Origin: Pseudomonadota bacterium
GTDB taxonomy: Bacteria > Pseudomonadota > Gammaproteobacteria > Pseudomonadales > Pseudohongiellaceae
Direction: 5' to 3'
DNA: 31,550 bases
Assembly: GCA_038059145.1 (NCBI GenBank)
Contig: JBBTKA010000106.1
Location: 23,097-54,646, forward strand
Shown: one piece after another, positions 5,573 through 15,454 of the stretch
Numbering within the stretch: the first letter of the stretch is position 1
Layout of the letters: the number at the start of each line of letters is the position of its first letter
The notes under the pieces: model-generated
What the model saw: the letters and a program-made list of their open reading frames with translations, nothing else
Told to the model about the DNA's origin: nothing
Databases searched by the model: none
Made by a program: the position numbers and the translations under genes

Positions 5573-7459
5573 TCAAAAATTGGCGCGAATGCCAACGTAG
5601 ATTGATCTGCCTGCCGTGTTATACCCCAACACTTCCTCATAGTCTGTGTCAGTCGCGTTATCGATTCTGACATAGGCGTTGAAAATGCGATTGAGGTCAA
5701 AGCTCGCGCTCAGATCGACAACGTCGTAGTTATCCAGCGCCACAGGAGCGCCGAAGAGCGAATCGACAGAGTCTTCCGAGCGACGATAGAAACCACTCAG
5801 TTGCAGACGTTCATCAGCACTTTGCCAGGACAGCCCCAGGTTGGCGAGATGCCTGGGGCGCAGGATCCGCTGACTGCCATCGGGGCGCAGGGCCTTGTTG
5901 TACGTGTAGTTGCTGTTCAGCGTCAGTTGCGCAGTCAGCGGCAGCTTGGCTGAGAGCTCTACCCCTTCCGAAGTACTCTTGCCGACATCCTGCAGATAGC
6001 CGGAGTAAGCGTTCAGGTCGAATTGAATTGCATCCTCGATTTTCTGATCGAAGTACACGGCTTCCAGATGCAATCCGGCAGGCGTGTAGTACTCCATCCC
6101 CAGCTCATAGCCAGCGCTGGTTTCCTCGGTCAGGCTGGCAAGCGAGGCCGGCGGTCGTGCAGAAGCGCTGCGGTTATAGGCGGCTTCGTAGGGGCTGGGA
6201 GCACGGAATCCTGTGCCGAGGCTGGCTCGCAGTTTCAGCTCCGAGTTGTTGTTCATCCCGATCAGGTAAGCGCCGCTGACGCGGTAGCTGTTGTGATTGC
6301 CGAAATCATCGCTCTCGTCGCGGCGGACACCGGCGGTGAAGAAAATTGCATCCGAGAAGTCACTGAGATACTCGACGTAGTAACCAAGCTGGTCGCGGGT
6401 GTCACCTTGATTGTCCTCCTCTTCCAGATCGGCGCCGTAGACGAGCTTGAAAGAGTCGAATCCGGTGGCGGCCCCCAGATATTCCCAGCGCTGAGTCTTG
6501 CCAGTGAAATCGTAGGTCGCGGCGCCCAGGGTGAAGTAGTCGCGTTCGGTGGCAGTTCTGGCATAGGCCAGTGAGTGGGTGCCGGACGCCCCTTCATAGG
6601 TGGCGGAAGCGCGGGATGCTTGTTGCTCGAAGTCCGCGTCGCAGTCGTGTACCTGACTGAAGTTGGTGGGATGGAAGCAACCGTCGTAGGCTGATTCGCC
6701 GGCGACATCGCGATGCACCAGTTCCAGGCGCAGACTTTCGCTGGCGTTGACGCCGATGCGGGCGTGCAGCGAGGAGTTGTCGTAGCCGTCATCATCGGCA
6801 GTCGCGGTGTCGGCTTTGCGGGCATTGAAACCATCGGTTTCCAGCTGGCTCGCGGAGACGAAGAAATCGCCACGATCATTGCCGGCGCTGACGTTGCCGT
6901 TCACCTGTCGTGTTCCAAAGGCGCCTGACAGCACATCCACGGTGGTGCGTAATTCATTGCTGTCGCGGCGTGTGCTGATGTTCACCACCCCGCCGGCGTC
7001 GGCGCCATAACTCAAGCCTTGAGGGCCGCGCAAGATTTCCACGCGTTCGATGCCGCTGCTGAGCAGGTGCTCCAGTTGGGGCTGCACTTGTGTCACGCTG
7101 GGGTCTGACAATTTCATACCGTCGAGCAATGTGAGTGTGCGATATCCTTCCTCGCCACGGATGCGCATTGTCGATATCTGCCCCTGGCCGCCGTTGTTGC
7201 TGACGGCGACGGCGGGCAAGGTGCGCAGGATGTCGAGCAGGGAGTCGTTTGACCGCGCGTTGAGGTCGTCGCTGTTCAGCACCGATACGGAGGTGCCGAT
7301 CTGCCGTAACGGAGTAGCGATGCGGTTGGACGTGACGATGACCTCGTTCAGTTCACTGGATTCTGCTGTGGTGTTCTGGGCGAGTGCGGGTTGCGAAATA
7401 AAAGGAGATAACGTGGCGCCTGTGGCACAGGCCAGCGCCAGAAGTTTACGGTAATGCAT
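5573..7459 (-). CDS. btuB: TonB-dependent cobalamin receptor
   Basis: Signal peptide, TonB box (EVIVT), plug (IRGEE, IERVEILRGPQGLSYGADAGGVVNI), C-terminal Phe; preceded by cobalamin riboswitch. Confidence 0.88.
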   Translation of the reverse strand: MHYRKLLALACATGATLSPFISQPALAQNTTAESSELNEVIVTSNRIATPLRQIGTSVSVLNSDDLNARSNDSLLDILRTLPAVAVSNNGGQGQISTMRIRGEEGYRTLTLLDGMKLSDPSVTQVQPQLEHLLSSGIERVEILRGPQGLSYGADAGGVVNISTRRDSNELRTTVDVLSGAFGTRQVNGNVSAGNDRGDFFVSASQLETDGFNARKADTATADDDGYDNSSLHARIGVNASESLRLELVHRDVAGESAYDGCFHPTNFSQVHDCDADFEQQASRASATYEGASGTHSLAYARTATERDYFTLGAATYDFTGKTQRWEYLGAATGFDSFKLVYGADLEEEDNQGDTRDQLGYYVEYLSDFSDAIFFTAGVRRDESDDFGNHNSYRVSGAYLIGMNNNSELKLRASLGTGFRAPSPYEAAYNRSASARPPASLASLTEETSAGYELGMEYYTPAGLHLEAVYFDQKIEDAIQFDLNAYSGYLQDVGKSTSEGVELSAKLPLTAQLTLNSNYTYNKALRPDGSQRILRPRHLANLGLSWQSADERLQLSGFYRRSEDSVDSLFGAPVALDNYDVVDLSASFDLNRIFNAYVRIDNATDTDYEEVLGYNTAGRSIYVGIRANF

Positions 7460-7543: not shown

Positions 7544-7733
7544 GATGGAGCCCTCCGCTTCATCACAGGTGTAATTCATCGTCAGGCTGGTATCGGGCTC
7601 ATGCAACACGCTCATGGAGAGCATGCTACGCATTACCGTTGCGGGGGCAGCGCTGGAATCGAACCAGCTTCCCATTTATCTCGACAGCAGCTTGTCCTTG
7701 AACAAGCAACCATCGAGCACCTGAACAACTAAT
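7544..7733 (-). promoter_or_regulatory. Cobalamin riboswitch (short, class II-like)
   Basis: Minus strand CAGGTGC...AAATGGGAAGCTGGTTCGATTCCAGCGCTGCCCCCGCAACGGTAA...GAGCCCGATACCAGCCTGAC; P1 TTGTTCAG/CTGACGAT; downstream hairpin loop GCGGAGGG complementary to L5 CCCCCGC. Confidence 0.95.
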
Positions 7734-7774
7734 CAGCATCGCGGCGCGAGCAGGCCCTCACCGCAACGCCGGGG

Positions 7775-7803
7775 AGTCTACGCACTGCTCCCCCCTGAGT
7801 CAA
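7775..7803 (-). promoter_or_regulatory. Sigma70-like promoter of the btuB operon
   Basis: Minus strand TTGACT (7803-7798), 17 bp spacer, TAGACT (7780-7775), about 40 nt upstream of the riboswitch. Confidence 0.65.
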
Positions 7804-7812
7804 TCGCTCTGC

Positions 7813-7834
7813 CGCGCGGGTCGGACCCACGTAA
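7813..7834 (+). repeat. Left terminal inverted repeat plus target duplication
   Basis: CGCGCG-GGTCGGACCCACGTAA; contains GGGTC-G-GACCC palindrome. Confidence 0.85.
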
Positions 7835-7943
7835 CTTTATGAAATTTAGGTGCTTGTTGCGGTTTTAGGGGGCTTTTGGTGGCCAGAAATGCGGTTTTGT
7901 ACTAGATTTTACGCAGGAAGACATCATTTTTGGGAGGGCAAGG

Positions 7944-8723
7944 ATGCCACGCGCGAATCGCTATTTTCGGCAAGGCCACATCTGGCACATAACTCATCGC
8001 TGTCATCAGCAGCAGTTCCTGTTCAAATTCTCCCGTGATCGTGCGCGTTGGGTTTACTGGTTGTTTCAAGCCAGAAAGCGCTATCAGTTGTGCGTCTTGA
8101 ATTACGTTGTCACGTCAAACCATATTCATCTCCTGGTGCAGGATCGCGGCAAGGGAGAGATCGCGGATGCGATGCAATTGGTTGAGGGCCGGACGGCGCA
8201 GGAGTACAACCAGCGCAAGGAGCGCCGCGGGGCGTTCTGGGAGGATCGTTATCATGCCACCGCGGTGGATAGTGAGCGCTATCTTGCGGAATGCCTGGTC
8301 TATATCGATCTGAATATGGTGCGAGCGGGTGTTGTGCGGCACCCGCAGGAATGGATGCATGGTGGATACCTCGAACTGCAGTCGCCGGTGAAGCGTTACA
8401 GCATTATTGATTCGGGGACGCTGGTGAAGTTGCTTGGATTCACGAATGCAATGGAATTGCGCGAGGCACACAGGCAGTGGGTTCATGAGGCATTACAGCG
8501 CGGGAACCTGCCGCGGGATGAACGATGGACGAAAAGCCTTGCGGTCGGAAGTCCGGAATTCGTAAGGCGATTCCAAGAGGGTCTGGGTGTCAGGGCTAGG
8601 TATCGCGAGGTTTTCGAGCAGTCTGGCTTCTGCTCGCTCAGCGAGCATCGTGGCACTTATTGCGCTGAAATGGACGCTGGAATCCTACTCCCAAGCCTCG
8701 GAGAAGCGGATAAAAATGACTAA
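7944..8723 (+). CDS. REP-associated tyrosine transposase-like (RAYT, Y1_Tnp/HUH) protein
   Basis: MPRANR..GHIWHITHRC N-terminus, HUH motif SNHIHLLV, FWEDRY, catalytic-Tyr motif YIDLNMVRAG; GGAGGG RBS upstream. Confidence 0.92.
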   Translation: MPRANRYFRQGHIWHITHRCHQQQFLFKFSRDRARWVYWLFQARKRYQLCVLNYVVTSNHIHLLVQDRGKGEIADAMQLVEGRTAQEYNQRKERRGAFWEDRYHATAVDSERYLAECLVYIDLNMVRAGVVRHPQEWMHGGYLELQSPVKRYSIIDSGTLVKLLGFTNAMELREAHRQWVHEALQRGNLPRDERWTKSLAVGSPEFVRRFQEGLGVRARYREVFEQSGFCSLSEHRGTYCAEMDAGILLPSLGEADKND

Positions 8724-8743
8724 TACTCATCATTATCAATAGA

Positions 8744-8765
8744 TTACGCGGGTCCGACCCGCGCG
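8744..8765 (-). repeat. Right terminal inverted repeat plus target duplication; encodes the current dxs C-terminus and stop
   Basis: TTACGCGGGTCCGACC-CGCGCG; reverse complement CGCGCGGGTCGGACCCGCGTAA. Confidence 0.85.
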
Positions 8766-10633
8766 ACCCGCGCGCGGATGGCGGCGACGATGGAGGGGGA
8801 GTCCAGGCCGGCTTTGGCGAGGATGTCGGGGACTTTGCCGTGGCTCAGGAAGGCGTCGGGAAGCCCGAGGTTCAAAATCGCGACGCGATGGTCTTCGCGC
8901 AGCAGGAACTCGTTGATGGCTGAGCCGGCGCCGCCCATGACGGTGTTCTCTTCCAGTGTCACGATCAATCGATGTTGTCGTGCCATGTCTCCCGTCAATT
9001 CTTCATCTAGAGGCTTGATGAAGCGCATATCCACCACGGTCGCGTCCAGAATCTCTGCAACTTCCAGCGCAGTGGTCACCATGCTGCCGAACGCGAGAAT
9101 GGCAACATCCTTTCCACTTCTGCGTACCAGGCCTTTGCCGATTGGCAGCAACTCCATCTTTTGGTTGATTTTCACGCCTGGCCCTTTCCCGCGCGGATAG
9201 CGCACCGCCGCCGGACCTTGGTGACAATAACCGGTGTAGAGCATCTGCCGTGCTTCGTTTTCATTGCTCGGTGCCATGACCACCATATTGGGAATACAGC
9301 GCAGGAAGCTCAGGTCAAAACTGCCGGCGTGGGTAGGGCCATCTTCTCCTACCAGACCTGCGCGATCGATAGCAAAGAGCACATCAAGATTTTGCAGTGC
9401 AACATCGTGAATCAGTTGATCGTAGGCGCGTTGCAGAAATGTCGAGTAAATCGCCACCACGGGTTTCAGCCCGTCACACGCCATCCCGGCCGCCAGCGTC
9501 ACGGCGTGTTGTTCGGCGATGGCAACATCATGGAATTGGCGCGGATATTTTTCGGCGAACTGATCCATCCCCGAACCAGCACTCATTGCCGGTGTGATCG
9601 CTGCCAACAGAGGATGATCAACTGCCATGTCACACAGCCACTGTCCGAAGACAGCCGAGTAGGTCGGCGTTTCGGCCTTGCGCGTGGCAGGCAGAGGACG
9701 CTTGGCCTCGACCTTGTTCATCGCGTGCATGCCAAAGGGATCGCTTTCCGATGCCGTGTAACCCTTGCCCTTCTGCGTCACGACATGCAGCAACTGCGGA
9801 CCGCGCAGTTGTTTGATGTTGGCAAGCATGTCGATCAGCCCGAGCGTGTCATGTCCATCGACCAGACCGATGTAATTGAAGCCGATCTCTTCGAACAGAG
9901 TGCCAGGTGACACCATGCCTTTCATATATTCTTCGGCCCGATGCGCCGCTTTCAATGCGGGAGGAATGTGCGACAGAACTTTTTTGCCACCCGTCCGAAT
10001 AAAGTTATAGGGGCGGCTCGCCCACATACGGGCAAAGTAGCTCGACAACCCACCGACGTTTCTGGAGATGGACATGTTGTTGTCGTTGAGGATCACCAAC
10101 AGGTTTTCGTCGAAATCACCGGCATGATTGAGCGCCTCGAAGGCCATGCCTGCGGTCATGGCGCCATCGCCAATAATCGCCACCGTGTGGCGGTCGATCT
10201 GCTGCTCGCGTGCGGCGATCAGCATTCCGAGTGCAGCGCTGATCGATGTGCTGGAGTGTCCGACTCCGAAGCTGTCGTACTCGCTCTCCTCGCGACTCGG
10301 AAATGCCGCGAGACCGCCGGCCTGTCGCATCGTCAGCATGCGCTCGCGGCGGCCCGTAAGAATCTTGTGAGGATACGTCTGGTGGCCGACATCCCACACC
10401 AGGCGATCATGAGGGGTATTGAAGACATAATGCAGCGCAATGGTGAGTTCCACCACACCCAGTCCCGCCCCGAAGTGGCCGCCAGTCTGTCCGACAGAAT
10501 AGAGCAGGAATTTGCGCACTTCACGTGCAAGATCCTTGAACTGGGCGGGGTCGATTTTTTTCAGGTCGTCCGGACTTTGAATCTGGTCAAGCAGCGGGGT
10601 GTCAGGGCGGCTAAGGGGAATTTCGTCGAGCAT
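8744..10633 (-). CDS. dxs: 1-deoxy-D-xylulose-5-phosphate synthase
   Basis: [73 protein letters not shown] motifs; 629 aa. Confidence 0.98.
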
Positions 10634-13997: not shown

Positions 13998-15454
13998 TCA
14001 GCGCTTCCAGGGCGAACCGTTTTCTTCCGTGCCGGCATCCACATGCATGGAGCAGCGTCGAACCTTGAACTTCTGACCCTTGATGGGACGGCCTGCCAAT
14101 TGCTCCAGTGCTTCTTTCACCTGAGCGGTGGCAATCGCGACGTAACTGGCGTGATCCAGAATGTCGATCCTGCCGATGGCCGTGGCTGCGATAGCGCCTC
14201 CGGCTGTCAACGCGCCGAGCACATCCCCCGGACGGATCTTGTTCTTGCGACCACCTGCAATGCTCAGTGTCTGCCAGGAAGGCGGGGCCGGTTTGCCGCG
14301 CTCCTGTGGCACTACGGCAATGCTCTGGATGTCGGAGTCCGACAGTTGCTCCTGACGTGCCCGCAGCGCATCCACTCTGAACCTTTCGTTCTCGAAAAAG
14401 ACGCTCAACGACATGCCGGTGTTGCCGGCGCGTCCAGTGCGCCCGATGCGGTGTGTGTAGACTTCGAGGTCGCGGGGCAATTCGCAGTTGATGACCATCG
14501 GCAGTTGCTCGATGTCCAGTCCGCGCGCCGCGACGTCGGTAGCCACCAGAATCTGACAGCTCTGATGACGGAACTGAATCAGCACCTGATCGCGTTCACG
14601 CTGCTCCATGTCGCCGTGCAGCGGCATGGCACTCAGGCCCGCGTCCACAAGATAGCGAGCCGTCTCACGAGTCGCCTGTTTGGTATTGCAGAACACCAGG
14701 CATGATTCGGGTTTGAAATGCAGCAGCAGTCGCAACACGGCGGCATAACGACTTTCACCTGCCTCTGTGGCGCCGCAACTGTAGTAATGCTGGGCGATGC
14801 TGGCAGCCCCATGGCCTTCCTCGATTGTCACCCGACGAGCCCCTTTCTGGTACTTCGCGCTCAGGTTCTCGATGTCGTGTGGGAAAGTGGCCGAAAACAG
14901 CAGTGTCTGCCGTGTTGCCGGTGTCTGGTCGATGATCAGTTCGATGTCTTCGGAGAAGCCCATATCGAGCATGCGGTCGGCTTCGTCCAGCACGAGGGTG
15001 CTGACGCGGCTCAGGTTCAAGGTCTGCTTTTCTATGTGATCGCGAATTCGGCCGGGTGTGCCGATAACGATGTGCGCCCCGTGTTCGAGTGAACCGACCT
15101 GCGGCCCGAAGGCCTGTCCGCCACACAGCACCACGACCTTCAGATTGGGAAGGTAGCGCGCCAGGCGGCGAATCTCGGTGGCAACCTGGGTGGCCAGTTC
15201 GCGAGTCGGGCACAGGATCAGGGCCTGGGTGCCAAAGTCGCGCTGATTGATGCGGTTGAGCAGGGCGATGCCAAAGGCGGCAGTTTTGCCGCTGCCGGTG
15301 CGCGCCTGCACGATCAGATCGCCGCCCTGCAGTGCAATCGGCAGCGCCTGCGCTTGCACCGGAGTCATGCGCGTGTAACCCAGTGCCGTGAGGTTGTCGA
15401 CCTGCTCGGGAGGCAGGTTCAGCACGGTGAAGGCGTCGGTCACATGGGATTCGC

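Follow-up and report, generated by a model that had tools for sequence, protein, structure and literature searches.

How does a transposase of the Y1/HUH kind come to lie between two symmetric inverted ends, and does such a unit still move? The question is raised by positions 7813 to 8765 of the window, by which we mean the whole 31,550-nucleotide stretch analysed here (G000:C106:23097-54646), taken from a bacterial genome (G000) that is 68% complete and divided into 227 contigs. A preliminary description, made from the sequence alone, took this unit for an autonomous insertion sequence (IS) of a poorly described class, in which a RAYT-like enzyme moves its ends and duplicates its target. Its outline of the unit is borne out: a compact RAYT-like Y1/HUH gene between symmetric inverted ends, and neither the asymmetric hairpins of IS200-type elements nor arrays of GTAG-tagged repetitive extragenic palindromic (REP) sequences. 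We put the probability at roughly 80% that the unit is a TIRtron, that is, one RAYT-like Y1/HUH gene (a TIRYT) between two cognate terminal inverted repeats, with the history and mechanism set out below. A few related bacteria from groundwater and lakes have inherited the unit at a single chromosomal site, and the locus illustrates a known oddity well; sequence near-identical to the window is present in groundwater, anchialine and freshwater metagenomes.

The ends of the unit are the natural starting point. A repeat search returned a single inverted pair, CGCGCGGGTCGGACCCACGTAA (7813-7834) and TTACGCGGGTCCGACCCGCGCG (8744-8765), each 22 nt long, complementary at 21 of 22 positions (95%) and 909 nt apart. 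The 16-nt arms and the CGCGCG hexamers of the preliminary description read as it stated, as does its ACCCGCGCG repeat, and arms and hexamers together therefore form one continuous 22-nt inverted repeat, of which the hexamers are the outermost six bases. The outer CGCGC of the left repeat is the clade-specific outer arm of a palindrome, and the conserved inner positions of this end (YAA..TGA) reach to about 7848. A hairpin had been proposed at each end. At the right end it stands up, since as single-stranded DNA this end folds into a 7-bp stem at -9.2 kcal/mol (z -2.5), whereas the left end is weak (-3.5 kcal/mol on the + strand and -5.9 on the - strand) and folds no better than shuffled sequences. 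No GTAG foot is present at the unit's ends, and no additional copy of the end motif was found elsewhere in the window. Matches to the IHF consensus, of the form YAA-N4-TTGA(T), are found subterminally at 7835-7850 and 8728-8743, equidistant from both ends, and their position holds across the family's 114 ends.

Comparison with other genomes indicates that these ends belong to the gene. At least 8,000 homologues of the protein occur among metagenome proteins, many of them about 55-65% identical and 241-271 aa long, with source names such as 'putative transposase' or 'REP element-mobilizing transposase RayT'. We collected 80 loci, 72 of them with sufficient flanking sequence, from species genomes that belong to Gamma-, Beta- and Deltaproteobacteria, Nitrospirota, Binatia and others. 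Cultured hosts with a family member include Thioalkalivibrio sp. ALJ7, Neptunomonas antarctica S3-22 and Desulfocicer vacuolatum DSM 3385. Homologues do keep the ends: GGTCGGACC, with at most one mismatch, is inverted on both sides of the gene in 57 of the 72 loci, with a median box-to-box length of 931 bp that falls within 922-953 bp in 51 of the 57. Because the same ends flank homologues at 53-80% amino-acid identity, they are not a product of chance, and the comparison shows the unit (about 931 bp box to box) to be conserved as a single entity across several phyla. A profile of the 114 ends yields the consensus GGGTCGGACC-N4-YAA-N5-TGA, in which positions 1-10 each reach at least 90%, A16 97%, T23 86% and G24 87%. 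Its inner portion agrees, in reverse complement, with the IHF consensus WATCAANNNNTTR, and the full pattern occurs in 22 of the 114 ends at a constant position. No hairpins are formed by the ends outside the host clade, where position 11 is A and the flanks do not pair.

The transposase gene is the unit's only open reading frame with homologues, and its product matches Pfam Y1_Tnp (PF01797) at E 5.6e-11. Across 72 homologues H60, H62, Y120 and N124 are invariant, and the C-terminal extension is conserved at W179, W195, G202, R221 and Y239. Structural neighbours in the ESM Atlas over the whole length of the protein (residues 1-249) are Y1_Tnp proteins with HTH_23, HTH_3 or Bac_DnaA_C domains, while sequence searches of the PDB with the single protein or with a 20-sequence profile returned nothing significant. 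The gene is single-copy in G000 and in five further host genomes searched, one of which also has a paralogue at 46% identity, and tblastn against 72,556 plasmids found no homologue at E 1e-20. Copies of the end box number 1-32 in other hosts; the box is over-represented in some of these (32 copies versus 0 for the control in G042, 13 versus 1 and 8 versus 1) and not in others, such as G044 (1 versus 2). At one locus in G042 (L116, G042:C1:2384268-2385631) the homologous gene stands in a REPtron-like array, with two end boxes to one side of it and three to the opposite side, and in G045 and G043 four boxes that all point one way are clustered within 2-5 kb.

A target duplication of 4 or 6 bp, suggested earlier by the identical hexamers, is not upheld. 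Direct matches between the two flanks of the 57 units have length 0 in 42 cases, 1 in 10, 2 in 4 and 5 in a single case, a distribution equal to that of the shuffled control, and no flank position is conserved among these units. In sister species of G000 the two flanks of the unit are unlike each other (e.g. ..ccctaCGCGGGTC against ..ctcccCGCGGGTC in G016). Matching flanks are likewise absent from the three gene-less doublets of G000 described below, which make up three of the four complete elements in that genome. As the flanks match to the same extent as in the shuffled control, insertion proceeds without a target duplication. We accordingly rejected CGCGCG as a duplicated target: the hexamer is the outer stem or arm of the palindromic end. 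The doubled ACCCGCGCG (8757-8765 and 8766-8774) had been read as a hint of sequence-guided targeting. It is no evidence of such targeting: the repeat is, judging from the related genomes, a local 9-bp in-frame stutter in the tail of the adjoining gene and not a target duplication; a stutter of similar size occurs in G020 and none in G041, G017 or G014.

The history of the unit can be followed in its host genus, for which we compared 26 genomes. The adjoining gene (8744-10633, minus strand) is one that we take, from its sequence, to be dxs. The unit lies exactly between the dxs 3' end and the promoter of a btuB-like receptor gene, and the dxs stop codon, TTA at 8744-8746 on the minus strand, lies inside the right repeat. 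Six of the 26 congeners (G000, G041, G020, G017, G016 and G014) have the unit at this same locus, with transposases 64-80% identical in amino-acid sequence to that of G000. In a Dxs tree that includes five of these carriers (G017 was left out as its contig ends too soon) the carriers form one clade with support of 100/99 and the topology (G016,(G014,(G000,(G041,G020)))), and the ranking of transposase identities agrees with it. Transposase dN/dS is 0.06-0.19, and transposase dS tracks that of dxs (0.25 versus 0.16 for G041-G020 and 1.03 versus 0.64 for G000-G041). These comparisons show vertical inheritance under purifying selection within the six-species clade.

Outgroup congeners record the state before arrival. 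G006, G018, G010, G008, G013 and G002 have empty sites, in which promoter-GTCAATC is followed by a few bases and the dxs stop, and GAGTCAATC, the -35 box of the riboswitch promoter, marks the unit's left flank in all congeners. Dxs of the congeners that lack the unit has a longer tail, ending in ..AAIRSKLQKCKIQSEAV* or similar. In carriers this ancestral tail is gone and the reading frame enters the right repeat, giving a tail whose length differs from one carrier species to the next; the unit therefore arrived once, and some 50 bp of the target were lost in the process. These loci show a single entry at the dxs 3' end that replaced the last 13 or so codons, so that the unit now provides the stop codon. 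In the outgroup G007 a hairpin, CGCGGGTCCGGCCTGCG, occupies the position of the left end beside an intact dxs tail and could be a footprint or a pre-existing target.

Loss and decay are also visible. Contigs from a freshwater run contain an allele in which 7805 is joined to 8769 via CGCGTCCCGCGAG, and a metagenome contig about 88% identical to both flanks (L169) confirms this junction. The pattern is absent from all 26 genus genomes and present in this one related metagenome contig. As both the unit and the ancestral dxs tail are missing from it, the L169 allele is a secondary loss. The gene is fixed at one locus in six species, an outcome that the preliminary description had named as telling against a mobile element, yet empty sites do exist in the outgroups, together with one secondary loss. 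Two other contigs with the junction 20-mer proved to be unrelated coding sequence, and a contig of run X14 joining 7835 to 8731 was not counted as an excision product, having only 24 nt on one side. In G014 (L018, G014:C9; orthologue of 7806-7950) the left repeat, leader and start codon are missing through a 129-bp deletion that left no in-frame ATG, GTG or TTG. The reading frame is otherwise intact, which suggests that the transposase gene of this species was recently inactivated. In an RNA run (X15), whose data are too thin for a conclusion, contigs cover the riboswitch leader and dxs and none covers the transposase gene.

The ends are also found without the gene. Three gene-less elements of G000, 207-216 bp long, are bounded by the unit's ends (C106:14311-14526, C202:2670-2876 and C28:4901-5107), and solo ends occur at C181:9878, C118:5927 and C202:13131. 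The exact motif GGGTCNGACCCRCGYAA is present in 7-10 copies per carrier and in none of the other 20 genus genomes, reversed-pattern controls giving 0, and the majority of the copies belong to gene-less inverted doublets of 205-216 bp; as the carriers are one clade, this co-occurrence of motif and gene does not amount to six independent observations. Loose matches to the end motif number 12-22 per genome. The doublets of G000 are inverted pairs located just downstream of genes, and they share only their ends of about 30 bp, their AT-rich interiors being mutually unrelated. Folded as single-stranded DNA, a doublet pairs only at its two ends (about 20-30 nt) and its interior is not self-complementary. 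Sister species have all three doublets, and most of the other copies, at orthologous positions; between orthologous doublets the 28-bp ends are 76-95% identical and the interiors 50-65%, with a length of 205-208 or 214-216 bp. In G041 a lone degenerate box, GGCGCAGACCC, stands in place of doublet 2. Since the six species share nearly all copies at orthologous positions and some lineages show decay of the unit, these observations indicate that present activity is very low and followed by decay.

Two further features adjoin doublets. At the site of doublet 3, G014 (L147, G014:C5:76300-82000) and G041 (L148, G041:C20:18000-23600) have an extra 4.8 kb encoding a MacAB-like efflux operon, with an HlyD-type adaptor, a MacB/FtsX permease and an ABC ATPase. 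This segment lies between the doublet and a further right-end copy, is bordered by ends in direct repeat and varies in its presence from one sister species to another. A distinct and far more abundant GC-rich palindromic repeat with the core GGACACGCCGTGAACCCATCCGTGGGGGCTCG.. lies at G000:C106:14141-14289 and 14600-14732 (L043 842-990 and 1301-1433), adjoining doublet 1 and an 8-bp tandem repeat, (C/G)TTTCGGG x6. It has 38-82 matches per sister genome and 8 in G000.

The class to which we assign the unit is little studied, as the preliminary description supposed, but it is not without a name. Di Nocera, De Gregorio and Rocco described RAYT-like genes with long inverted repeats that are not GTAG REPs in 2013 and named them TIRtrons and TIRYTs (PMC3733652); many TIRtrons, though not all, have GGGGWSAS, and their repeat families are 'moderately abundant', as singles, dimers or clusters. 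The present unit resembles them in having an HUH/Y1 gene with long terminal inverted repeats at a fixed distance and in low copy, in ends that are also moderately abundant as singles and dimers in some genomes and hardly present in others, and in shared protein landmarks: MPR.., T(S/N)NH(I/V)HLL, G.(L/F)WE(G/D)R(F/Y) and Y-I-(E/D)-L-N-x-VRAG. It differs in that the repeat of the host clade is a self-complementary hairpin and in that M, not P, follows the N of the tyrosine motif. Quentin et al. (2018; PMC6006769) placed 20 of the 26 published TIRYTs in TnpAY1 subclass 2.1, which occurs in about 15% of strains and comprises long proteins with a C-terminal helix-turn-helix (HTH)-like extension (HTH_23, HTH_28 or Bac_DnaA_C) and no REPs. 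Subclass 2.1 is the same as the RAYT group 1 that Bertels et al. described (2017; PMC5581495), the most widely distributed and most IS-like group, whose flanking 16-mers have about 12 copies per replicon. Likenesses to it include the long protein with its conserved C-terminal extension, the lack of canonical REPs nearby, the wide and patchy distribution, the low copy number (7-10 repeat copies here versus about 12) and the Atlas neighbours with HTH_23 or Bac_DnaA_C; the differences are the lack of a Pfam HTH match and the Y-x3-NM motif. Judged by the published descriptions, the family would fall in or near subclass 2.1 / RAYT group 1. It is a new subfamily of the already named, biochemically unstudied TIRtron kind and not a new class.

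Several observations weigh against this assignment. The WEDRY and NMVRAG strings of the family are absent from all 26 published TIRYTs in the alignment of PMC3733652, for which reason the subfamily is not among them. In most members the terminal box is one base off GGGGWSAS, (G)GGGTCGGACC reading GGGGTCGG; a few members, such as L116, read GGGGTCAG, an exact match, and the host clade reads CGGGTCNG. All class 2 TnpAY1 proteins were given the tyrosine motif Y-x3-N-P (PMC6006769), in place of which the family has Y-x3-N-M (invariant Y120-I-D-L-N124-M125), with the Pro alone replaced. The C-terminal region has no Pfam match at E up to 10 in the three C-terminal halves searched. Movement of the unit itself is seen only indirectly, in a single gain, a single loss and a distribution across phyla that is patchy. 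Finally, every step of the mechanism is inferred, and TIRYTs are biochemically unstudied. Searches of literature text for the GGGTCGGACC and GGTCGGACC motif strings gave unrelated matches only.

As to how a TIRYT might work, E. coli TnpA-REP (PMC8266576, PMC3479197) and IS608 provide the analogy: with Tyr120 and the HUH metal site the enzyme probably nicks single-stranded DNA at its cognate ends and rejoins it. The terminal box of 9-11 bp is nearly palindromic, and would thus present nearly the same sequence on one strand at both ends and allow same-strand recognition. The IHF-like subterminal YAA-N4-TTGA, whose distance from the box is fixed, may assist in bending the ends, and the extra C-terminal domain may bind duplex DNA. 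Short doublets, with ends able to pair in single-stranded DNA, would be the preferred or likelier substrates, as REPINs are for RAYTs. A more specific version, which we offer as a doubtful possibility, is that the near-palindromic box (GGTC-N-GACC) would be a same-strand nick site at both ends, so that excision would regenerate a box in both the donor and the excised circle, much as with a rolling-circle Rep protein; solo boxes would then be footprints or landing sites, and the length-locked doublets of about 207 bp, their interiors neutral and their conserved ends bearing IHF-like sites, would be kept as functional nucleoprotein substrates. If true, this would be the first mechanistic model for the handling of inverted ends by a single-stranded DNA HUH enzyme. 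TIRtrons are common, and such handling by an HUH/Y1 enzyme has never been demonstrated. The locus offers a comparative data set on this point, with a family-wide end consensus, a fixed unit length, no target duplication, a strict co-occurrence of gene and fixed-length doublets, and gain, decay and loss dated within one genus. It supplies concrete substrates for a first biochemical test and does not overturn current ideas.

Among other explanations, the one that survives best is a canonical REPtron, in which a domesticated RAYT is accompanied by a population of REPs and REPINs, the unit's ends being REP hairpins and the doublets REPINs. The known REPIN-RAYT systems (E. coli TnpA-REP and Pseudomonas RAYTs) resemble the present one in their single-copy, vertically inherited Y1 gene between inverted cognate repeats, in gene-less inverted doublets dispersed downstream of genes and in a repeat family found only together with the gene. 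The purifying selection on the gene and the true palindromic hairpins formed by the ends in the host clade fit this reading as well, and REP_Tyr_transpos is the best NCBIfam match of the protein, although its score (72.4 bits) falls just below the cutoff of 80. A REPtron, however, has GT[AG]G-tagged palindromes at high copy (tens to hundreds), against no GTAG or GTGG foot and about ten copies (7-22) here. Doublets of about 207 bp with unrelated interiors that pair only at their ends, and terminal sequences that outside the clade form no hairpins, are also at odds with it, and we consider a canonical REPtron improbable.

An active autonomous IS of a new class, whose Y1 enzyme would move symmetric ends and duplicate a 4-6-bp target, is very unlikely. 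It would account for the inverted repeat with CGCGCG on both sides, for the unit size and ends conserved across phyla, which imply movement between genomes, and for the one gain and one loss at the locus. Yet flank duplication does not exceed chance in 57 family members, the two flanks differ in G016, matching flanks are missing at the three doublets, the class already has its name, and the claim of present activity fails on a unit with one copy per genome, no plasmid homologue and one locus in six species, which co-diverges with dxs. The opposite extreme fares no better. In a fully domesticated host gene with no transposition left, the repeats and doublets would serve the host as nucleoid or IHF sites or as 3'-end hairpins for dxs and other genes. 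Purifying selection, orthologous copies across species, doublet ends and lengths that are conserved while interiors drift, a right repeat that is part of dxs and an IHF-consensus-like end profile are all compatible with such a role. Against it stand the complete loss of the unit in one relative, the loss of the left end and start codon in G014 and of a doublet in G041, the absence of the gene from 20 of the 26 congeners, and hosts with almost no extra copies (G044), and we regard full domestication as very improbable too. An ordinary IS200/IS605 element (such as IS608 or ISDra2), which would share the Y1_Tnp match, the presumed HUH/Y1 chemistry, the lack of target duplication and, as the nearest though weak match of the family profile in the PDB, the ISDra2-type transposase 2xm3 (E 0.95, not significant), is extremely unlikely, as the IS200 model (NF033573) gives only 27 bits versus a cutoff of 55, the ends are inverted repeats and not same-strand subterminal hairpins, neither tnpB nor a multicopy state is present, the 259-aa protein with its C-terminal extension contrasts with a short, dimeric TnpA (about 130-150 aa for TnpA-IS200), and IS200/IS605 elements insert 3' of a specific tetra- or pentanucleotide whereas no conserved flank base was seen in the 57 units.

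Positions of the unit and of its neighbours are collected in Table 1.

Table 1. The TIRtron-like unit and its surroundings, in window coordinates
Feature	Position	Strand	Remarks
TonB-dependent receptor gene (btuB-like)	5573-7459	-	neighbour on the left flank
Cobalamin riboswitch of the TonB-dependent receptor gene	7568-7739	-	left-flank context
Sigma-70-like promoter (TTGACT-17-TAGACT) for the riboswitch	7775-7803	-	-35 box is the conserved GAGTCAATC, 7795-7803
Left terminal inverted repeat	7813-7834	+	family box GGGTCGGACC(C) at 7818-7828
Leader, left repeat to start codon	7835-7943	+	box to ATG about 126 nt here, mostly 112-125 nt in the family
TIRYT/RAYT-like Y1 HUH transposase gene, 259 aa	7944-8723	+	HUH H60-I-H62; catalytic Tyr120 in YIDLNMVRAG; C-terminal extension of about 120 aa
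Right terminal inverted repeat	8744-8765	-	7-bp-stem hairpin CGCGGGT-CCG-ACCCGCG
dxs (1-deoxy-D-xylulose-5-phosphate synthase), presumed	8744-10633	-	last residues and stop from the flank stutter and right repeat
9-bp in-frame tandem repeat of end/flank, ACCCGCGCG	8766-8774	.	within the rewritten dxs tail

Most congeners have other Y1_Tnp paralogues besides. One group of these has open frames of about 200-310 aa at 26-34% identity, and a second, of about 330 aa and 22-25% identity, recalls by its length subclass 2.3, reportedly a common one in Chromatiales.

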